Shown here in pieces: positions 1-9,060 of a stretch of DNA of 64,000 bases. Made by a program: the position numbers and the translations under genes. The stretch is from Desulfobacterales bacterium (GTDB lineage Bacteria > Desulfobacterota > Desulfobacteria > Desulfobacterales > Desulfosalsimonadaceae). The stretch spans positions 269 to 64,268 of the forward strand of contig JAGXLR010000001.1 of the NCBI GenBank assembly GCA_018334555.1, written 5' to 3'. The notes beneath the pieces were generated by a model. That model was given only the letters and a program-made list of their open reading frames with translations. It had not been told where the DNA came from and did no database searches. Position 1 is the stretch's first letter. Each line of letters begins with the position of its first letter.

Positions 1-38
1 TTTTACCCATTTTGAAACGGCCAAATAGAATCGCCCGG

Positions 39-1511
39 CTAGTTGCTTCGGACGCGCTCCTCGGCTTCCGCGAGGATTTTATCGATATCCTTTTTGGCTT
101 CGGGCGGCACGCGCTTGCTGGGGCCTTCGTAGTTCTCCATCAAATCGCGGGTTTTCTTGAGCACCCGGTCCTTCATGGTGGTCCGGCCCTGGGCATCCCA
201 ATCCTCGTAACTGTTCCTGTCCATAAGCGTCGGCTGGTAATGCTTGCGGAACCACTTCATGGTGTGATCCTCATACAGATAGTGGCCGCCGGGCCCCACA
301 TTGCAGATCTGCTCGACCGCCATGGTCTCCTCGTTTACATCAAGGCCACCGGTGATCAGCCGGCTCATCCCGATGATCTCGTCATCTAACACCGTCTGGT
401 GGATATCCCCGGTCATACCGGATTCGGTATAGCCGTTGTCGTGGACAAAATTTGCGCCCGAGAGCATGGCCATATGGATCGATAGTGCCGCCTCCATGCC
501 GGACTGAAGTTCCAGGCACTTGGTATCCGTACATCCGGCGGTCGAATACATAGGCAGTCCGACAAATTGAAGCATCTCGGTTAGACCGGCGCTCAAAATG
601 CTCAGTTCCGGGGCCCCATAGGAATAGATGGTATGGCGCATATCCAAAATGGACTGAACGCCGCCAATGATAATGCAGGTACCCGGATTCATGAGCTGGG
701 ATACGACGACGCCCACCATGGATTCGGACATGGCCACCACCAGCTGTCCGGCATGCGTGGCCGGCACCGTACCGCCGCCGATGGCGCATGGGCTGTAAAC
801 CTGCGGGATTCGGTGCTCCGCATTGTACATACACTTATCAATGGCGTGGTAATCGCTGACCAACGGAGAAATGGGCTCGCCGTAGCTGATATAGTTGGGC
901 CGTTTCTTGAATGCCTCTTCGCCGCCGGCCATCACGATGCCCACCCGGTGCTCATCCCGCACGCCATCTCTTGTAAACGCCCAGTTCATAACGATTTTAC
1001 GCGTATTCTGGATCATGTCCGCGAACTCATAGATGTCTGCCAGGCCGTTGGTCACATCATTGATGGAGCCCAGCGACTGGACGTATCCGATATTGGGCAG
1101 GGCGTCACAGACGCGCGCGACGGTAGTGGCATCTTTTCTGAGATACGGACGACGCTCCAGGGAGTACGGATCGATGAAATTGGGCGGCGTGGGACCGGGG
1201 CCGAAATAACCGCGGCCTTTTTCCACATAGCACATTTCCTCATTGCCGTCCCAGGAGTATAGGGTTGTGGTGGGCGGCAGCGTGGACAATGCCTGCCGGA
1301 CAATTTCCGGCGGAATGCGCACGCGAATCCCGTCCACCTGGCACCGGTTCTTGGCCAGCAATTCCCGGGCGCCCTCATGATGGACATCCGCCCCCGTATC
1401 ATTCAATGTTTTAATGACCCCGTTGAAAATGCGCTCTTTCTGGTCCTCCGACATCATGGAGAACTGCATGGTGTCATTGGCAATATAGTTGGTTACTTTA
1501 TCGTGAATCAT
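39..1511 (-). CDS. MttB-superfamily corrinoid-dependent methyltransferase, non-pyrrolysine type (glycine betaine/quaternary amine:corrinoid methyltransferase-like)
   Basis: Uninterrupted 490-aa ORF with the length and sequence character of the trimethylamine methyltransferase (MttB/MtgB) family. SD AAGGAGAG lies 5 nt before the ATG at 1511. No in-frame TAG. It sits next to a paralog and a corrinoid protein. Confidence 0.85.
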   Translation of the reverse strand: MIHDKVTNYIANDTMQFSMMSEDQKERIFNGVIKTLNDTGADVHHEGARELLAKNRCQVDGIRVRIPPEIVRQALSTLPPTTTLYSWDGNEEMCYVEKGRGYFGPGPTPPNFIDPYSLERRPYLRKDATTVARVCDALPNIGYVQSLGSINDVTNGLADIYEFADMIQNTRKIVMNWAFTRDGVRDEHRVGIVMAGGEEAFKKRPNYISYGEPISPLVSDYHAIDKCMYNAEHRIPQVYSPCAIGGGTVPATHAGQLVVAMSESMVGVVVSQLMNPGTCIIIGGVQSILDMRHTIYSYGAPELSILSAGLTEMLQFVGLPMYSTAGCTDTKCLELQSGMEAALSIHMAMLSGANFVHDNGYTESGMTGDIHQTVLDDEIIGMSRLITGGLDVNEETMAVEQICNVGPGGHYLYEDHTMKWFRKHYQPTLMDRNSYEDWDAQGRTTMKDRVLKKTRDLMENYEGPSKRVPPEAKKDIDKILAEAEERVRSN

Positions 1512-1582
1512 ATGGACTCTCCTTATATCTCCTGCCCATACCGCCGCATCGGGAACGGTATGGCCATTGTAAAGGCATTGGG

Positions 1583-3037
1583 TTATTTGGAATGGCGTTT
1601 TTCCGCATCATCTATGATCTTTTTGAGATCTTTTCTAATCCCGTCGTCAATGGGCTCGGGTTCATACTCATCAAGGATGCGCTGGGTTTCTTCATTGACC
1701 CGGTCCAGCATGGTCTTTTTTCCGTTGTCGCACCATGTCTCCCAGTCAGAGCGATCCTGCAGCTTTGGAAAATACCATTCCCGCCAATGCTCGTATGTGT
1801 GGTCTTTGGTGACATACTCCCCGCCCGGGCCGGCCTCGTCGATAAGTTGCAGGGCCAAATACTCCGGATCCGTATTAATGCCCTTTCCGATTTGACGGAC
1901 CAGACCGATAATCTCCTCGTTCATGACCAGGCTCTCCAGCGAGGCATTGACACCCGAGTCAATATAGCCCACATCGTGAACCAGGTTGGCGCCGGACAGG
2001 AAGGCATTTAGCACGGAAAGCGTGGATTCGGCGGCCGCCTGTTCATCCACCGCTTTGGAATCCGTGCATCCGCCTGTGGAAAACATGAGCAAGCCCAGCC
2101 ATTTGGAAATATCCGTGTTGGCGGCAGAAGCCAGCGAAAGCTCCGGTGCGCCATAGGAATAGGTCGTCGTACGCATGTCCATAACCGTGGTCACACCACC
2201 CATAATAAGCGGCATACCGGGTTTTTTGAGATAGCAAAGCACGGTTGCCAGAAGCGTCTCGGCAAGGGACTGCACCAGCATCCCCGGGATGGTTGCCGGC
2301 GCCGTCGCCCCGGAGCTGGGGCACGGCGTATACATGGCCGGAATCCCTTTTTCCGCTGCAAAAAGCAATTTTTCCACGGCGGTCCGATCGTTGGTAAGCG
2401 GTGAGATGGGCTCGATATAGGCCACAAACATCGGGTTCAAGCGGAACTCCTCTTCACCTCCCTGGAACAGGCAGGCCATCTTCCAGATGTCTTCGAGCCC
2501 TTCGCCGTCGACGCTGGTCACGACCATCGGCTTGGTGCAGCCTTCGAGCATCGCCATAAACTGATGGCGGTCATAGGTCAGCGGGTTCGGGGCATCACCG
2601 ACGATGCCGTGGGACATAAAAAAATCATAATTGGGGAGATAATCGACAAAGCGCGCCGCATTGACGATATCCTTATACAGGGTCCGCCGGCGCTCGCCGG
2701 TCTCCCGGTCATAGGTAAACGGCAGATCCGATCCGGTGCCGAAATAAACGTGATCCTTCTGCAGAGCTACGGAGCGCTTGCCGTTTCTGCCTTTGAGGGT
2801 AATCTTGTTGGGATAGGTTTTTAAAGCCCTTTCAACAAGCGAGACCGGCACACGAACCCGGTTCCCCCGGACGACCGCGTCGCTGTTTTTAAACAGCTCA
2901 ATGGCCTCGTCCTGAAAAACATCCGCTCCGCATCGCTCCAATACTTCAAGCGCTGAAAAATATATTTTTTCAATCTGCTGATCCGTCAACACCCGAAATT
3001 GCGGTGTTTTCTGGATCGTCTGGTTCATCTTTTCCAT
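1583..3037 (-). CDS. Second MttB-superfamily methyltransferase paralog (non-pyrrolysine)
   Basis: 484-aa ORF that aligns by eye along its length with the 39-1511 product (shared blocks such as GAPELS, SGANxVHD, EDW). SD GAAGGAG lies upstream of the ATG at 3037. Confidence 0.85.
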   Translation of the reverse strand: MEKMNQTIQKTPQFRVLTDQQIEKIYFSALEVLERCGADVFQDEAIELFKNSDAVVRGNRVRVPVSLVERALKTYPNKITLKGRNGKRSVALQKDHVYFGTGSDLPFTYDRETGERRRTLYKDIVNAARFVDYLPNYDFFMSHGIVGDAPNPLTYDRHQFMAMLEGCTKPMVVTSVDGEGLEDIWKMACLFQGGEEEFRLNPMFVAYIEPISPLTNDRTAVEKLLFAAEKGIPAMYTPCPSSGATAPATIPGMLVQSLAETLLATVLCYLKKPGMPLIMGGVTTVMDMRTTTYSYGAPELSLASAANTDISKWLGLLMFSTGGCTDSKAVDEQAAAESTLSVLNAFLSGANLVHDVGYIDSGVNASLESLVMNEEIIGLVRQIGKGINTDPEYLALQLIDEAGPGGEYVTKDHTYEHWREWYFPKLQDRSDWETWCDNGKKTMLDRVNEETQRILDEYEPEPIDDGIRKDLKKIIDDAEKRHSK

Positions 3038-3142
3038 TGGTTGACTCCTTCGCCCGAATTTTTATGAATAAAGGCCTCAGCAGGTATTTAAGGCTTATAA
3101 TGGTCGTCAGCTGGATACTAAGCCCCTGCTTTTTTTATAAAT

Positions 3143-3176
3143 GCCGGTGCGGGCGGGATCCGCCTGCCGCACCGGC
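3143..3176. other. GC-rich inverted repeat between the corrinoid-protein gene and the MttB gene
   Basis: GCCGGTGCGGGCGG-GATC-CGCCTGCCGCACCGGC forms a long imperfect stem. On the coding (minus) strand it is not followed by a U-tract, so its function is unclear (processing/stability element or weak attenuator). Confidence 0.3.
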
Positions 3177-3208
3177 GTCTTGATTGAAACCCTTTGGGAG
3201 CTACCGGA

Positions 3209-3847
3209 TTACAGCCCCAGTTCCGCCTTACCCTTGTCCACGGAACTGGCTGCATTGGCCCCGTAAAGATCGGCGCCGATTTCCTTGGCATATTCCTCGG
3301 TAACGGGCGCCCCGCCGACCATGATCTTTACCTGGTCCCTTACCCCGGCTTCCTTCAGGGCGTTAATGGTCTCACCCATCTTCGGCATGGTCGTGGTCAA
3401 AAGCGCCGACATGCCCAGCAGCTGGGGTTTATGCTCCTTGACGGCATCCACGAACACCTGGGGCTTTAAATCAATGCCCAGGTTAACGACCTTGAACCCG
3501 GCCCCCTCGAACATCATGCCGACGAGGTTCTTTCCGATGTCATGAAGGTCGCCCTCAACGGTGCCGATCACGAGCGTGCCGGCCTGCTTGGTATCACTCT
3601 CTGCCAAAGCGGGCCGGAGATGCTCCATCCCGGCACTCATGGCCTTTGCCGAACGCAGGACCTCCGGGATAAACATATCCCCCGCCTTAAACCGTTGACC
3701 GACAACGTCCATACCGGCGATAAGCCCTTTATTCAAAAGCTCTTCCGCTGCCACACCCCCATCCAGGGATTCCTTTGTCATTTTATCGACCTCTTCCACC
3801 TTACCGGCGATCAATGCCTCTGCTATTTTCCCTAAATCTTCAGCCAT
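3209..3847 (-). CDS. Cobalamin-binding corrinoid protein (MtgC/MttC-like methyl carrier)
   Basis: 212 aa. It has the B12-binding DxHxxG motif (GDLHDIGKN), a downstream SALLTTT (SxL) block and an N-terminal helical cap. SD GGAGAAGGAGG lies upstream. Confidence 0.85.
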   Translation of the reverse strand: MAEDLGKIAEALIAGKVEEVDKMTKESLDGGVAAEELLNKGLIAGMDVVGQRFKAGDMFIPEVLRSAKAMSAGMEHLRPALAESDTKQAGTLVIGTVEGDLHDIGKNLVGMMFEGAGFKVVNLGIDLKPQVFVDAVKEHKPQLLGMSALLTTTMPKMGETINALKEAGVRDQVKIMVGGAPVTEEYAKEIGADLYGANAASSVDKGKAELGL

Positions 3848-3914
3848 GTGATTTCCTCCTTCTCCTATTAAATTGCTTTAGTATTGACGTATTACGAAAC
3901 TGATAGACTTGCGG

Positions 3915-4754
3915 TTAGGGTTTGCGAAAGTGAAATACCCCCCATGCCAGATAGCCCTTGTTGCCGCCGTCCACCCAGTGGCGCAGGCCTTTTTTCATAT
4001 TGTCGATATACTCCTGGCTGATTTTGTGCTTGACCTCGTCTTCCCGTTTTTCCAGCTCCTCCAGGATACGGGCGTAGCTTTTTGTCAGATGCGGGGTCAG
4101 CTCCTCAAAATCCACGACCTCAAAACCGATCTTTTTGGCATGTTGCTGATAAAAACCCGGTGATCCCAGGCTCGTCAGATGGATCCGATCATAGATCGGC
4201 TGCAATACATCCTCCGGACAGTCATCGGCCTGCATGGGATCGGTAAATATCATCTCACCGCCGGGTTTCAAGACCCGTTTGGCCTCCTCCAGAACTTTTT
4301 CACGGTTGTCGCTGTGCAGAATCGCATCCTGGGACCAGACGATATCAAAGGATTCATCAGGAAAGGGGATGGTGTCAAAGCTTCCGTCAACGACCTCGAT
4401 CATATGATCCAGCCCCTGTTCCGCGTTCATTTTACGAGCGCGCGCATTCTCAGTTTCACTTAAATTTAAAACCACGACCTCCCAGCCGTAGGTTTTGGCC
4501 AGATACCGGGCGGAACCTGAAAACCCGCCGCCGAGATCAATGATCCGGGCCTTGCGGTTCAAAAATGCCGAACGGGATGCCATATAGTTTATAGTACGAC
4601 GACTCGCATCAAAGACGGAGTCGTCGTCCGACTCGTAAATACCCAGATGCAGGTCCTCCCCACCCCATATAGTATAATAAAAGGTATGGGCATCGTCACT
4701 ATCATAATAATGTTTGGTCGTCTGTACGGTCTCTGTGTACTCCTGGTTGGTCAT
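3915..4754 (-). CDS. Sarcosine/dimethylglycine N-methyltransferase-type SAM-dependent methyltransferase (betaine biosynthesis family)
   Basis: The ORF track gives 3915-4781. The preferred start is the ATG at 4752-4754, preceded by AAGGAGG, giving 279 aa. Blocks YYDSDDAHTFYYTIWGGEDLHLGIY, IIDLGGGFSG (SAM motif I), FTDPMQADDCPE and GLRHWVDGGNKGYLAWGVFHFRK match, as I recall them, the halophile SDMT enzymes. Confidence 0.8.
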   Translation of the reverse strand: MTNQEYTETVQTTKHYYDSDDAHTFYYTIWGGEDLHLGIYESDDDSVFDASRRTINYMASRSAFLNRKARIIDLGGGFSGSARYLAKTYGWEVVVLNLSETENARARKMNAEQGLDHMIEVVDGSFDTIPFPDESFDIVWSQDAILHSDNREKVLEEAKRVLKPGGEMIFTDPMQADDCPEDVLQPIYDRIHLTSLGSPGFYQQHAKKIGFEVVDFEELTPHLTKSYARILEELEKREDEVKHKISQEYIDNMKKGLRHWVDGGNKGYLAWGVFHFRKP

Positions 4755-4928
4755 ATTCGCCTCCTTCATTTTATTTAACAATTTATAAAATTTGCATTTT
4801 AAACTATGCGGAACAGGTATCGGATCCGCGGGTAATGTTTTTATATGTTTGGGTTTTGCCTAATAATTATTTTTTTTTATCTATAGCTTTATATATTTTT
4901 TTCTAACTTCGATTGTAATAAATTGATT

Positions 4929-4957
4929 ATACTAATTTAAAATTTATTATCTGTCAA
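4929..4957 (-). promoter_or_regulatory. Candidate sigma70-type promoter reading toward the methyltransferase/corrinoid operon
   Basis: On the minus strand: TTGACA (4952-4957), a 17-nt spacer, then TAGTAT overlapping TATAAT (4926-4934). Located in the AT-rich intergenic region about 170 nt upstream of the start at 4754. Confidence 0.3.
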
Positions 4958-5363
4958 CAAATTTCTCCGAAACTCAATTATATGTTCAAATATTCACAGG
5001 TTTGTAACGATTAAAATGTTCTTGACAAGGGGGTTTGAGGTATATTAATTGTCCCTATTTGTTCGCTCGGAGATTTCAAAAATGCATGTAATCCCAACGA
5101 ATTATCATTTTAATTGGATTTTCAGAGAGTTATTGATCAAAAAGTAGCTTTCCGTCGACTATGTTTCTAATAAAAATAGATATAAAACCCCTCAAGCGGA
5201 GAGGCGGCACTGAACCGATCGCCCGGACGCCTCCAGAAAATATCAACTTAAAAATTAAGAAATGGATTTATTTTTATTTAAAAAAGAATAACTTTAATAT
5301 ATACCCGGACTAAAGAAAATCAAAAAAACACAGCCCCCAAACACTAATAAACAGGTTGAAATT

Positions 5364-6704
5364 ATGGCAGATATTTTTCCTTTTCGCGGCATCCGATATA
5401 ATATTGAAATTGTCGGGGATCTGGCCCACGTGGCCACCCCTCCTTATGATGTCATCTCTGATGAAGAGCAGGACATGTATTATGAGCGCCACCCCAACAA
5501 CATCATTCGCCTGGATAAGGGAAAAGAAACGGCAACCGATGACGATCAGGACAACCCATATACACGGGCGGCCGAATATTTTAAAAACTGGATCTCAGAA
5601 GGCATTCTGCTGAAGGATAAGGCCCCCTGCCTCTATTTGACCAGTGTGGAATTCACCATCAACGGCCAGACGTTTACCCGCTTCGGTTTAATCGCCCGGG
5701 CCAGGCTCGAGCCTTTTGAGAAAGGCGTTATCCTTCCCCATGAAGAGACCTATTCCAAGATCAAATCCGAACGTCTGGAGCTGATGAAGGCCTGCCACGC
5801 GAATTTCAGCCATATTTTTTCCATATTTACCGATAAGGACGACATTATGGGGAGGCTAAAATCCGCCGTGTCAGGCTCAAAGCCGGAGACCGAATTCACC
5901 GATGACGCCGGACATCATCATCAAATGTGGTGTATTGCCGATCCGAAGATCCACGAAGCGGTGACGGAAAGCCTGAAAAAACGTCGGCTATTTATCGCTG
6001 ACGGCCACCACCGCTATGAAACCGCCCTGACATACAGGGACTGGCTGGCTGAGAACTCACCGGATTTCAGCCCGGAACATCCGGCCAACTTTATTATGAT
6101 GTATCTGTGCTCAATTGAAGATCCGGGATTGATTATTCTGCCCACCCACCGCCTATTGACAAGCGTCTCAGCGGCCCAACGGAACACTTTTGTATCCAAG
6201 GCGAACCAGCACTTTGACGTTCAAACATTCGCATTCGGCGACAATAACCCGGACCAGGAAAAATCCCAGGCCCGTTCAAAGCTCCTCACTACTATGAGGG
6301 CCGAAACGGATAAGCATATCATCGGCGGGTATATAAAAGGTTACCCGGAGTTCTATGCATTCACCCTCAAGCCCGATGTGATGAGACAAAAATTTAACAG
6401 CGAAATCGAGGAGCCCCTGAGAGAGCTTGACGTCACGGTATTAACGCGCATTATTCTGACGGAGCTGCTGGAATTTGACCATAAGGATCTCGATGACGAG
6501 ACCCTGATCAGTTATACCAGCGATGCGGTAGAGGCAATAGAGGCGGTCGATGGTGGGGAATACGACATGGCCTTTATTTTAAACCCGCCATCCAATGAAC
6601 AGGTCCGTGACATTGCCGATGCGGGATACACCATGCCGCGCAAAACGACCTTCTATTACCCCAAGGCGATTACCGGTCAAGTCATGAACAGTTTGGACGA
6701 CTAA
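5364..6704 (+). CDS. DUF1015 family protein
   Basis: 446 aa. N-terminal FRGIRYN...PPYDVISDEE and the central ADGHHRYETAL block are characteristic of DUF1015. Function unknown. Confidence 0.75.
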   Translation: MADIFPFRGIRYNIEIVGDLAHVATPPYDVISDEEQDMYYERHPNNIIRLDKGKETATDDDQDNPYTRAAEYFKNWISEGILLKDKAPCLYLTSVEFTINGQTFTRFGLIARARLEPFEKGVILPHEETYSKIKSERLELMKACHANFSHIFSIFTDKDDIMGRLKSAVSGSKPETEFTDDAGHHHQMWCIADPKIHEAVTESLKKRRLFIADGHHRYETALTYRDWLAENSPDFSPEHPANFIMMYLCSIEDPGLIILPTHRLLTSVSAAQRNTFVSKANQHFDVQTFAFGDNNPDQEKSQARSKLLTTMRAETDKHIIGGYIKGYPEFYAFTLKPDVMRQKFNSEIEEPLRELDVTVLTRIILTELLEFDHKDLDDETLISYTSDAVEAIEAVDGGEYDMAFILNPPSNEQVRDIADAGYTMPRKTTFYYPKAITGQVMNSLDD

Positions 6705-6717
6705 GAGGAGGCTTCCC

Positions 6718-7569
6718 ATCGAAACCATTCAAGCCCTTTCACAAGCTATTGCCCGGTCAGAAAAACTCCACCGGAAGGGGAAGAAGATTGCACTGGTGCC
6801 GACGATGGGATTCTTTCATGAGGGCCATCTCGCTCTAATGCGCAGGGGCCGAGAGATTTCAGACGATCTGGTCATCAGTCTGTTTGTCAATCCGACGCAG
6901 TTCGGCCCCAATGAGGACTATGAGACCTATCCCCGCGATACGGACCGGGACCTGGCATTGGCTGAAACGGTCGGTGTGGATGCTGTTTTTATCCCGTCGG
7001 TAGATGACATGTATCCGGAGGGATTTCAGACATATGTGGATCAGACGGATTTGCCGAAACATCTCTGCGGCTTAAACCGTCCCGGCCACTTTCGGGGCGT
7101 ACTGACGGTTGTTGCCAAGCTTTTCAATATCATCCGGCCGGACACCGCCCTGTTTGGAGAAAAAGATTACCAGCAGCTGGCCGTAATTCGTCAAATGGTG
7201 CGGGATCTCAATTTTAATATCGATATTATCGGGGTCCCGACCGTTAGGGAAGCTGACGGCCTTGCCATGAGCTCACGAAATATTCACCTTGCGCCCAAAC
7301 AGCGCGAAGCGGCGCGCAGCCTTTACAAAGCCCTTCAGTCCGCGCAGGAGAGGCTAAGCAAAGGGGAAAACAGGGCCGATCGGCTGATCCGTGCGGCAAC
7401 GGATAGGATCCAACAGTATCGGGACGCATCCATTGATTATATTAAAATCAGCGACTTGCAAAACCTGGAGGATGTCTGTACGATTGACCGCCGCGTACTT
7501 ATGGCGCTTGCGGTCAAAATTGGGGGCACCCGGCTGATTGACCATACCATACTCGATCCTGAGGCCTGA
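6718..7569 (+). CDS. panC: Pantoate--beta-alanine ligase (pantothenate synthetase); start upstream of the GTG used by the ORF track, probably ATC at 6718
   Basis: PTMGxxHEGH and downstream PanC blocks are present. The frame upstream of 6796 encodes IETIQALSQAIARSEKLHRKGKKIALV, which matches the conserved PanC N-terminus. AGGAGG (6706-6711) sits 6 nt before the ATC at 6718. There is no ATG/GTG/TTG in frame after the stop at 6685. Confidence 0.85.
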   Translation: METIQALSQAIARSEKLHRKGKKIALVPTMGFFHEGHLALMRRGREISDDLVISLFVNPTQFGPNEDYETYPRDTDRDLALAETVGVDAVFIPSVDDMYPEGFQTYVDQTDLPKHLCGLNRPGHFRGVLTVVAKLFNIIRPDTALFGEKDYQQLAVIRQMVRDLNFNIDIIGVPTVREADGLAMSSRNIHLAPKQREAARSLYKALQSAQERLSKGENRADRLIRAATDRIQQYRDASIDYIKISDLQNLEDVCTIDRRVLMALAVKIGGTRLIDHTILDPEA

Positions 7570-7660
7570 GCACAGCCTCCGCCGGTTTGGCCGCCCTCCA
7601 CAGGAAGATGACACATGAATGGCAGACTATTGTGATCAAATTCAATCAAAGGAGATTATT

Positions 7661-8830
7661 ATGAGTGGAAATCGCGTATTATTTACATCCGAATCCGTCA
7701 CTGAAGGACATCCGGATAAAGTGGCCGATGCCATATCCGATTCCGTTCTTGACGCTATCATCGGACAGGACAAAAAATGCCGAGTGGCTTGCGAAACGTT
7801 GGTAACCACGGGATTGGCGTTCATTGCCGGGGAAATTACAACCGAATGCTACGTGGATTTCCCCCAGGTCGTTCGTGAGACCATCCGGGACATCGGATAC
7901 AGCTCATCCCGAATGGGATTTGACTGGGAGACCTGCGGTGTGGTCACCAGCATTGATCACCAGTCCCCGGATATCGCCCAAGGCGTAAATGAGGGCCAAG
8001 GGCTCTACAAAGAGCAGGGAGCCGGGGACCAAGGGCTGATGTTCGGATTTGCTTCCGATGAAACGCCGGAGCTGATGCCCATGCCGATTATATTTGCCCA
8101 CAAACTCACCAAACGCCTGGCCCAGGTCCGAAAACACGGATCAGTCGACTTTCTGCGCCCGGATGGCAAATCCCAGGTCACCATTGAATACGAAGGCGGC
8201 CTGCCGAAACGGGTGGATACGGTCGTTGTCTCCACCCAGCATAAAGGTGACGTCAGCTACGAAGAGGTGCGAGAGGCGGTTATCGAAGAAGTGATCAAAA
8301 AGATTATCCCCAAGGAGATGATTGACGGGGATACCCGCTATTTTATCAATCCGACCGGCCGGTTTGAGGTCGGCGGCCCCATGGGGGACTGCGGCGTTAC
8401 GGGACGAAAAATCATCGTGGACACCTACGGCGGCCAGGGAAGCCACGGCGGCGGATGCTTTTCCGGAAAAGATCCCACAAAAGTGGATCGAAGCGCTTCC
8501 TACATGGCCCGCCACGTGGCCAAAAACATCGTTGCCGCCGGCCTGGCCAAAAAGTGTGAGGTCCAGCTGGCCTATGCCATCGGGGTCGCCGAGCCGGTTT
8601 CGATTCTGGTCGACTTTTTGAATACAGGAAATATCCCTGAAGAAAAAGCGACTGATATCATCAACGAGGTTTTCGATTTACGCCCGGGGGCGATAATCGA
8701 ATATCTGGATCTTCTTAGGCCCATATATAAAAAGACCGCCGCTTATGGCCACTTTGGCCGCAAGGACCCGGATTTTACCTGGGAGCACACCAACAAGGCG
8801 GAGGAAATAAAGGCTAAAGCCGGCATCTAA
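7661..8830 (+). CDS. metK: S-adenosylmethionine synthetase
   Basis: Has GHPDK, GAGDQG and [16 protein letters not shown] motifs. The preferred start is the ATG at 7661, preceded by AAGGAG (the ORF track start at 7619 lacks an SD). Confidence 0.95.
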
Positions 8831-8844
8831 ATCTCTGGACGCAT

Positions 8845-8868
8845 ACCGCCGGGGCATTCCCCGGCGGT
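8845..8868 (+). terminator. Probable intrinsic terminator after metK
   Basis: Perfect 10-bp stem ACCGCCGGGG/CCCCGGCGGT with a 4-nt loop, 15 nt after the stop codon, followed by the T-containing tail TATTCGATCTATT. Confidence 0.5.
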
Positions 8869-8945
8869 TATTCGATCTATTGCCCATCCATAAATGGATA
8901 GTTTGACCAATTTCTGTGGCAGACTCAAATGGGGCAGACTCAAAT

Positions 8946-9060
8946 TTTGATGGCTTCGCAAAAAGTCCAATCCCTCGGAATCTCACGTACAGCTAAGTAC
9001 CCTGCATTCCGCGGGATTTTGCGCGCCCCCGGATCTTAACTGGGGCTTGAACTTCTTACG
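8946..9060. repeat. Dispersed repeat family B, copy A (TGATGGCTTCG...AAAAAGTCC type)
   Basis: Shares long blocks with 61215-61370: TGATGGCTTCG(C/T)AAAAAGTCCAA and TCCCTCGGAAT(C/T)TCACGTACAGCTAAGTAC(C/G)CTGCATTCC(G/T)CGGGATTT. It is preceded by a 13-nt tandem duplication (8918-8945). Confidence 0.6.

Follow-up and report, generated by a model that had tools for sequence, protein, structure and literature searches.

In a 64,000-nucleotide stretch of a Desulfobacterales genome assembly (bases 269-64268 of contig C114, hereafter the window), the gene for a sarcosine/dimethylglycine N-methyltransferase (SDMT) stands first in an operon that goes on to encode a corrinoid protein and two MttB-superfamily methyltransferases, here called MttBa and MttBb. 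This link between SDMT and a B12-dependent machine suggests a cheaper, partly S-adenosylmethionine (SAM)-independent synthesis of glycine betaine in a halophilic sulfate reducer and in bacteria of four or more further phyla. Our preferred reading, to which we give somewhat less than an even chance, is that of a betaine-synthesis supercluster whose corrinoid module would methylate glycine and sarcosine from methyl-tetrahydrofolate (methyl-THF), with SAM used only by SDMT. Halophiles rely on glycine betaine as their main organic osmolyte, and its SAM-based synthesis is costly. This cost is a standard argument for the rarity of low-energy anaerobes at high salt.

Operon structure and continuation beyond the contig end

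Four open reading frames (ORFs) follow one another on the minus strand: SDMT (3915..4754, 279 aa), the corrinoid protein (3209..3847, 212 aa), MttBa (1583..3037, 484 aa), and MttBb (39..1511, 490 aa). They are separated by gaps of 67, 171, and 71 nt, and each ATG is preceded at 6-8 nt by a GGAG-type Shine-Dalgarno site. The ORF list and inspection of the start sites confirmed the four same-strand genes, coordinates, gaps, and strong Shine-Dalgarno sites described in an earlier interpretation of this DNA (the sequence-only reading). For SDMT, the lengths of homologues (277-281 aa) favour the 279-aa product from the ATG over one from an upstream TTG at 4781.

Only 268 nt of contig precede the window, which starts at base 269, so the contig end cuts the operon. 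An identical SDMT protein is encoded on longer metagenome contigs (L002-L004), of which L002 differs from the window at 2 of 4800 nt. On L002, the operon continues with genes for a hydantoinase-A-like protein (HydA, 689 aa), a YbaK/tRNA_edit protein (150 aa), a GcvR-like protein with two ACT domains (180 aa), a RACo/RamA-type activase (588 aa), a pterin-binding methyl-THF:corrinoid methyltransferase (MtgA-like, 265 aa), and SerA. In the window's own genome, contig C68 carries the same genes (99-100% identical) from 233 nt inward. Against PRK07535, the MtgA-like protein reaches 355 bits (cut-off 259), and the activase has the Fer2, Raco_middle, and RACo_C_ter domains of the RACo type. Taken over the window and C68/L002, a three-component corrinoid system (the MttB-type methyltransferase MT1, the corrinoid protein, and the MtgA-like methyltransferase MT2) is encoded together with its RACo activase. 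The sequence-only reading had reported no MtgA-like or RamA-type gene, which is correct for the window and incorrect for the operon, where both lie directly downstream on C68/L002. Their apparent lack is an artefact, because the contig end cuts the operon.

The SDMT protein

The 279-aa protein is a class I SAM methyltransferase whose sole strong family match is NF041675, aligned along its full length (272 of 278 positions) at 417 bits. This score lies under the family cut-off of 550, as do those of the MttB-linked proteins generally (397-417) and of the Methanohalophilus orthologue (486); the Halorhodospira protein scores 605. Both of these genera have characterised SDMTs. Because the Methanohalophilus orthologue of a characterised SDMT itself falls short, the cut-off is narrower than the family and does not settle membership. 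Among solved structures, the top match is 2O57, a putative SDMT from Galdieria (230 bits). In a comparison with 80 genomic homologues, the protein is 62% identical to that of Methanohalophilus, 57% identical to that of Halorhodospira, and 55-64% identical to SDMTs linked to GSMT. In a maximum-likelihood tree of 81 sequences, a branch with SH-aLRT 96 sets 16 MttB-linked proteins and three others apart from all 54 GSMT-linked proteins. Forty-eight columns are invariant over all 81 sequences, and the conservative change I35L is the only one that separates the MttB-linked from the GSMT-linked clade.

We therefore predict an ordinary SDMT with no sign of a new substrate. The SDMT-type assignment made in the sequence-only reading stands, as the protein groups inside the SDMT tree and keeps the SDMT-conserved residues. 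Two further ideas from that reading, a methyl shuttle from SAM to corrinoid and a SAM-dependent re-methylation of the corrinoid protein, found no support: nothing beyond one conservative clade position tells this methyltransferase from ordinary SDMTs, and a RACo activase belongs to the operon itself. A role for the protein as a SAM-dependent corrinoid methylase was likewise rejected, the CpaM model giving 39.6 bits against a cut-off of 180.

The corrinoid protein and the MttB paralogues

The corrinoid carrier protein is of the MtgC/MttC type, with PF02607 (B12-binding_2) and PF02310 (B12-binding) domains and a DLHDIG motif that reads as the His-on motif (DxHxxG). Its best NCBIfam match is MtgC_2 (230 bits, under the cut-off of 370), and its PDB matches are 1Y80 and the MttC chain of 7XCN. 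MttBa and MttBb match PF06253 (E = 1.8e-96 and 1.3e-77, respectively) and score 388 and 354 against TIGR02369, both under the cut-off of 525. Neither gene has an in-frame TAG, and a Cys codon stands where the pyrrolysine Pyl334 of Methanosarcina barkeri MttB (7XCL) aligns. The family assignments of the sequence-only reading, one corrinoid protein and two non-pyrrolysine MttB proteins, are thus borne out by Pfam and NCBIfam. MttBb is always paired with MttBa, to which it is 39% identical, and MttBa orthologues share 64-94% identity across phyla.

The best PDB matches of both paralogues are structures of the betaine methyltransferase MtgB. Identity to the D. hafniense enzyme is only 31% for MttBa and 29% for MttBb, compared with 52% for a true MtgB orthologue in genome G041. 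In MtgB, a betaine-bound structure and mutagenesis identify Y97 and F356, through cation-pi contacts, and R312 and H348, through the carboxylate, as the residues that bind betaine (PMC13080624). Of these four residues, H348 alone is retained in MttBa and MttBb. Y97 is replaced by Ser (S103) in MttBa and Pro in MttBb, R312 by Phe (F319) and Tyr, and F356 by Gly in both (G362 in MttBa), a pattern that is constant in every orthologue from five phyla. The Pyl334 position (Leu317 of MtgB) is occupied by C324 in MttBa and C327 in MttBb, with Ser in two MttBb orthologues. Invariant in MttBa and MttBb, respectively, are Glu209/212, Cys239/242, His354/357, and Asp355/358, placing the pair in a Glu/aromatic/Cys/His-Asp class.

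Judged by these residues, neither MttBa nor MttBb is an MtgB-type betaine demethylase. The sequence-only reading had seen one maker and two breakers of the same class of compound. This picture is not supported, given the loss of three of the four betaine residues, the identity of 29-31% to MtgB, and the finding of an MtgB orthologue in none of 12 SDMT-linked genomes, where the best match to a true MtgB-like query is MttBa itself (29-33% identity).

To place the pair within the superfamily, we took the 150 best-scoring representatives of 50%-identity clusters and aligned the 142 of full length (at least 440 aa). At the Pyl position, 70 of these 142 have Cys, 19 Ala, nine Ser, and seven Thr; at the R312 position, 122 have Phe, Trp, or Tyr and three have Arg. 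Because the residue pattern of MttBa and MttBb is common among them, the pair belongs to a large uncharacterised branch of the superfamily. A MetE-like zinc site (Glu209/Cys239/Cys324/His354) was also considered and weakened, as the Pyl-position Cys varies to Ser, Ala, or Thr and Cys239 is rare outside the pair.

Two additional sets of MttB genes were observed. Contig C81 of genome G000 (L090:7176-10097, minus strand) carries a second tandem pair, MttBa'/MttBb', each 48% identical to its counterpart, with no adjacent corrinoid protein and followed by two ORFs (240 and 217 aa) that have no Pfam match. The b' copy retains the Glu, the Cys at the Pyl position, the His, and the Asp; the a' copy has Met, Tyr, and Gly instead, and this loss suggests that MttB pairs may act as heterodimers with one catalytic subunit. 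Genome G044, from the same order as the window, encodes four MttB homologues with one in-frame TAG each (contigs C31, C73, C6, and C334). This points to a pyrrolysine-using member of the order, and the genome also has an MttBa/b pair and an MtgB orthologue.

Conservation of the cluster across phyla

The module of SDMT, corrinoid protein, MttBa, MttBb, and MtgA was found in five phyla, its hosts being Thermodesulfobacteriota, Bacteroidota, Verrucomicrobiota, Ignavibacteriota, and one unclassified bacterium. Within the SDMT clade described above (SH-aLRT 96), 16 of 19 genes adjoin a cluster of corrinoid protein (CoP)-MttBa-MttBb-(HydA and/or RACo)-MtgA. With RACo, hydantoinase-A-like, or DUF1638 proteins as its reactivation factors, the corrinoid methyl-transfer set is complete. 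Gene order varies among hosts. SDMT comes first in Desulfobacterales/Desulfosalsimonadaceae, Bacteroidales have CoP-MttBa-MttBb-HydA-DUF1638-MtgA-SDMT-AhcY-MetK-PfkB, Verrucomicrobiota have SHMT ... CoP-CoP-MttBa-MttBb-HydA-MtgA-SDMT-MTHFR-RACo, and Ignavibacteriales have MetV-MetF-CoP-MttBa-MttBb-RACo-DUF1638-MtgA-SDMT. All four orthologous loci chosen by MttBa similarity alone (L104-L107) have SDMT in the cluster. Their arrangements include MetK-AhcY-DUF1015-SerA-CoP-MttBa-MttBb-HydA-YbaK-ACT-RACo-DUF1638-MtgA-SDMT (L105) and DUF1015-SDMT-SerA-CoP-...-MtgA-PfkB (L106), and upstream of the cluster lie cobalamin salvage genes in L104 and a MetH reactivation-domain gene with MTHFR in L107. Genomes G086 and G080, of the same order as the window, have the same cluster including SDMT. 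Conservation of the SDMT-MttB adjacency in related genomes, on which the sequence-only reading depended, is thus upheld over five phyla and from both the SDMT and the MttBa sides. Full-text searches brought up no published description of an SDMT-MttB cluster; the nearest is a cluster comparison for strain DCMF, discussed below.

The companions of the cluster across its copies are MetK, AhcY, adenosine kinase, SerA, SerBK (DUF1015), and MTHFR or SHMT. SerBK replaces phosphoserine phosphatase (SerB) in serine synthesis (bioRxiv 10.1101/2024.10.14.618325). In the window, the DUF1015 gene (5364..6704, plus strand; PF06245, E = 1e-93) diverges from the operon and is accompanied by panC and metK. 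The ORF list places metK, for S-adenosylmethionine synthetase, at 7619..8830 on the plus strand, and every Desulfobacterales copy has this linkage. The distance from MetK to SDMT is about 4 kb in L002-L018; in L023, L025, L104, L105, and L107, MetK is inside the cluster. DUF1015 stands in a same-strand cluster beside SerA and SDMT in L105, L106, and L111, with SerA in mid-operon in L106 and L111. SHMT and MTHFR occur together in L030, and MetV-MetF in L039. Most copies of the cluster have no transporter gene.

GSMT and MtgB in the carrier genomes

GSMT is absent from eight of the 12 SDMT-linked genomes (G000, G003, G004, G006, G008, G009, G080, and G086) by a query that detects GSMT in controls. 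Completeness is 94.9% for G000 and 99% for both G080 (3 contigs) and G086. SDMT-linked genomes contain this MttB pair only or one additional pair. A different context is found in G041 and G044, which have an MttBa/b-like pair without SDMT, seven MttB paralogues each, and an MtgB orthologue (G041 is the source of the MtgB query, and the G044 protein is 66% identical to it). The G041 pair, 56% and 62% identical to MttBa and MttBb, has genes for an RpiR regulator, an MFS transporter, and SoxB/SoxA as neighbours. The pair thus occurs in two settings: a catabolic one with MtgB, transporters, and sarcosine-consuming enzymes, and one with SDMT, serine synthesis, and the SAM cycle without MtgB.

Comparison with known systems

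The GSMT/SDMT clusters of halophiles (Methanohalophilus, Halorhodospira/Ectothiorhodospira, and Aphanothece type), often arranged as MetK-AhcY-GSMT-SDMT-adenosine kinase, share with the present cluster an orthologous SDMT, the MetK/AhcY/PfkB companions, and hypersaline habitats. The canonical Methanohalophilus cluster, MetK-AhcY-GSMT-SDMT-PfkB, has the same MetK-AhcY-PfkB set as the MttB-linked clusters. The difference is that no GSMT is adjacent here and that the corrinoid protein, two MttB proteins, MtgA, and the activase are set in its place.

The MtgB-MtgC-MtgA system of Desulfitobacterium hafniense and Acetobacterium woodii (PDB 2QNE, 9YCE) has the same three components and a reductive activase: an MttB-superfamily TIM-barrel MT1, an MtgC-like corrinoid protein, and a pterin-binding MT2. 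Our system differs in its replaced Y97, R312, and F356, the Cys at the Pyl/Leu317 position, the low MT1 identity, the constant pairing of paralogues, the lack of a BCCT transporter, and the attached SDMT and anabolic genes.

In 'Ca. Formimonas warabiya' strain DCMF, a CoP-MTI-CoP-MTI-HydA-MTII module is induced on glycine betaine, and the module is also found in Sporomusa ovata and 'Ca. Frackibacter' (PMC9768040). The strain demethylates betaine to dimethylglycine and sarcosine and has a separate MtgB-type enzyme and BCCT transporters (PMC9768040). This half-cluster resembles ours in gene content, order, and protein sizes (MTIs of 485 and 488 aa, a hydantoinase-like protein of 668 aa, and an MTII of 265 aa), the likeness being one of order and sizes only. 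The DCMF module, in an organism that ferments betaine, is accompanied by a true MtgB, BCCT, and sarcosine reductase, whereas here SDMT, SerA, and the SAM cycle surround it and MtgB is lacking. The DCMF findings tie the module to dimethylglycine/sarcosine chemistry.

The split cobalamin methyltransferase/methionine synthase MtgBCD(E) of Ruegeria pomeroyi and Phaeobacter inhibens, for which a bidirectional methyl flow between THF and cobalamin has been proposed (PMC12478193), also has separate corrinoid and pterin-binding proteins and the reactivation factors RamA and DUF1638. It differs from the present system, which has no PF02574 homocysteine module, has MttB proteins of a different class, and occurs in an anaerobic host. 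The chloromethane CdmB system (PMC13222342) was considered as a relative and set aside, as it belongs to an unrelated family.

A proposed SAM-sparing route to betaine

The route we propose would begin with serine made from 3-phosphoglycerate by SerA and SerBK. SHMT would convert serine to glycine and methylene-THF, from which MTHFR would form methyl-THF. The MtgA-type enzyme would load the corrinoid protein from methyl-THF, reversibly, to give CH3-Co(III), and MttBa and MttBb would pass this methyl group to glycine (and sarcosine) in place of GSMT. SDMT would then take sarcosine through dimethylglycine to betaine with SAM, in an irreversible, biosynthetic reaction. The only outlay of SAM would be in the SDMT reaction or reactions that form the high-energy quaternary nitrogen, and most of the ATP cost of SAM regeneration would be saved, for an energy-poor anaerobe holding molar betaine. 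We put forward slightly more tentatively the specific claim that the MttB enzymes run in reverse on the methyl-THF-charged corrinoid protein and N-methylate glycine (and sarcosine), as a hybrid route replacing GSMT in halophilic anaerobes of several phyla.

Our comparisons point to the glycine/sarcosine/dimethylglycine series, and not betaine, as the substrates of MttBa and MttBb. With these putative substrates, no futile cycle would arise in the window's organism. In genomes that have neither GSMT nor MtgB, the MttB pair, acting from CH3-Co(III) on glycine, would be the only encoded source of sarcosine for SDMT. The energetics would run in the same direction: by the standard free energies of methylotrophic methanogenesis, an N-methyl group on a secondary or tertiary amine lies about 20 kJ/mol lower than one in methanol or methyl-THF, and the betaine methyl lies above methyl-THF. 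Methylation of glycine and sarcosine from methyl-THF should therefore be downhill, with SAM needed only for the last step. A precedent for direction is the bidirectional corrinoid methyl transfer described for MtgD (PMC12478193). Among the meanings offered in the sequence-only reading, that of an osmolyte synthesis module comes closest.

Several points weigh against this proposal. The corrinoid module is not a strict replacement of GSMT, a stronger version that we rejected, because four of the 12 SDMT-linked genomes have GSMT elsewhere: G001, G002, and G005 encode it as a stand-alone gene, and G007 encodes it fused to SDMT. We know of no MttB-family enzyme shown to methylate an amine, all characterised members being demethylases. 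The experimental data on a similar module, the DCMF proteomics, come solely from a catabolic setting. SHMT and MTHFR are compatible with either direction, and the constant retention of two paralogues is unexplained, as SDMT already accepts sarcosine. Finally, uptake of dimethylglycine or sarcosine is possible in G000, which has BCCT and ProV-like genes, and a ProV-type osmoprotectant ABC ATPase adjoins SDMT in L054.

Alternative readings

These transporter genes fit a dual-fate use of dimethylglycine and sarcosine, in which MttBa and MttBb would demethylate the imported compounds to methyl-THF, a reaction that the similar modules of strain DCMF and G041 probably carry out, and SDMT would turn part of them into betaine. 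The net reaction could be, for example, 2 dimethylglycine to betaine and sarcosine, and the harvested methyl groups would recharge SAM. Substrates common to SDMT and the MttB pair would explain, with no futile cycle involved, why the two are co-regulated. Betaine, whose use requires demethylation of dimethylglycine, induces the DCMF module, and G041 combines its pair with SoxB/SoxA, an RpiR regulator, an MFS transporter, and a true MtgB. We nevertheless find this reading unlikely, if worth serious attention. A pathway that releases glycine would have no use for serine synthesis by SerA/SerBK, yet SerA lies inside the operon, and an external supply of dimethylglycine or sarcosine would be required of organisms whose clusters mostly have no transporter. 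The SDMT-linked genomes, with their one or two MttB pairs and no MtgB, also contrast with the seven paralogues of each of the methylotrophic genomes G041 and G044.

The MttB proteins might alternatively form a split B12-dependent methionine synthase, in which MttBa and/or MttBb would methylate homocysteine together with MtgA, the corrinoid protein, and RACo/DUF1638 and so close the SAM cycle. The cluster has all steps of this cycle but methionine synthase, and no PF02574 (MetH/BHMT) or PF01717 (MetE) was found anywhere in G000, G080, and G086, nor in G002, G003, and G004. This absence is unspecific: among 21 high-quality genomes of the order that have no MttBa, nine likewise have neither domain (G017, G018, G031, G032, G043, G050, G062, G088, and G091). 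An unrecognised methionine synthase must therefore be common in the order, and we rejected the missing MetH and MetE as proof of such a role for the pair. Carriers in Bacteroidota, Verrucomicrobiota, and Ignavibacteriota moreover have full-length MetH. The invariant Glu, Cys, His, and Asp of the MttB barrel would suit a homocysteine methylase, as would the MetH reactivation-domain gene adjacent in L107, but the change of the Pyl-position Cys to Ser in two MttBb orthologues and to Ala, Ser, or Thr in many relatives disfavours a zinc-thiolate site. Canonical GSMT genes adjoin MetE in G005 and G007; however, genomes without GSMT would be left with no sarcosine source under this reading, the specificity of SDMT shows no change, and the related DCMF and G041 modules point to N-methylglycines. 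We give it little credence. As a separate observation, the metE genes in question directly adjoin the solo GSMT on C308 of G005 and the fused GSMT-SDMT, a 570-aa frame, on C124 of G007, so that genes of canonical betaine synthesis are also accompanied by a methionine synthase gene.

Slightly lower still we place the picture of the sequence-only reading, in which the MttB paralogues demethylate glycine betaine itself for pool homeostasis, as a methyl reserve, or as a SAM-to-corrinoid shuttle. The MtgB structures are the best PDB matches, at the level of a family annotation, and other quaternary-amine MttB enzymes likewise lack the aromatic pair of MtgB (PMC13080624). R312, however, is also kept in MtcB, MtpB, MthB, and MtyB (PMC13080624) and is Phe or Tyr here. 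Beyond the low identity to MtgB, SAM would be burned for no net gain, the neighbours are anabolic with no BCCT gene in the cluster, and catabolic genomes retain a separate MtgB beside the pair. Mere adjacency of SDMT to an unrelated methylotrophy operon, without functional coupling, is barely credible: G044 has the module without SDMT and a terminator-like hairpin (described below) splits SDMT and the corrinoid protein from the MttB genes in Desulfobacterales, but the linkage survives shuffled gene order in five phyla (SDMT first in the window, last in Bacteroidota, and before SerA in L106/L111) and the linked SDMTs form a clade of their own.

If SAM-sparing synthesis is true and one or two of the three methyl groups come directly from methyl-THF, the cost of betaine would be sharply lower. 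Genome-based predictions of betaine synthesis would then be revised, as many metagenome-assembled genomes with SDMT and without GSMT would otherwise be scored as unable to make it. The large uncharacterised MttB branch would gain a function, which would be the first biosynthetic role for the superfamily and its first pyrrolysine-independent chemistry at a secondary or tertiary amine nitrogen. If the module is catabolic instead, it would remain the leading candidate for the dimethylglycine/sarcosine:corrinoid methyltransferases that anaerobes use without pyrrolysine.

Transcription signals

An AT-rich divergent control region (4755..5363, GC down to 0.37) lies between SDMT and the DUF1015 gene. 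It contains a promoter-like site on the minus strand at 4957-4929 (TTGACA-17-TAGTAT, 10/12 matches), which leaves a leader of about 170 nt. An Rfam search found no riboswitch in this leader or elsewhere in positions 1-9000, the sole match being a sub-threshold PYLIS_3 (1969-2068, minus strand, 25.6 bits, E = 0.045). This match begins exactly at the Cys324 codon of MttBa, and we rejected it as an RNA element in favour of coding homology at the position equivalent to the mttB amber codon.

Between the corrinoid-protein gene and MttBa, a GC-rich hairpin with a short AUUUAU tail (3143..3176, minus strand; -28.4 kcal/mol, z = -4.0) resembles a terminator or attenuator. It was not picked up by a simple terminator scan. 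The hairpin is kept with compensating stem changes and a T-run in five other Desulfobacterales copies (L010, L011, L013, L014, and L016, with 8 T in L013) and is missing from other phyla, which have a gap of about 20 nt there. Because the hairpin is stable and conserved with a T-rich tail, partial termination at this point is possible. It probably lowers read-through into the MttB genes and is likely an internal attenuator, specific to Desulfobacterales, that would set the ratio of SDMT and corrinoid protein to MttB.

Accessory genes of the cluster

The hydantoinase-A-like protein, 660-690 aa in length, accompanies several kinds of MttB/corrinoid cluster (L101, L102, L103; L023:5104-7101). In the Ignavibacteriales copy L039 (6714-8378), RACo occupies its slot between MttBb and DUF1638/MtgA. 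We rejected a function as an N-methylhydantoin or creatinine enzyme on these two grounds, and an accessory ATPase role is likelier because the protein is a general MttB companion and is swapped for RACo in L039. Its gene context makes it a likely ATP-dependent factor for corrinoid reactivation or a chaperone.

A gene for a YbaK/ProX-type aminoacyl-tRNA deacylase also recurs in MttB/corrinoid clusters of Desulfobacterota (L092:2320-2772, downstream of the window; L101:4917-5408; L105; L106; L014). In Desulfonema, the YbaK gene is found together with BCCT, ornithine-cyclodeaminase-like, and MttB genes. The YbaK-like protein may remove sarcosine or other N-methyl amino acids from tRNAs that were wrongly charged with them.

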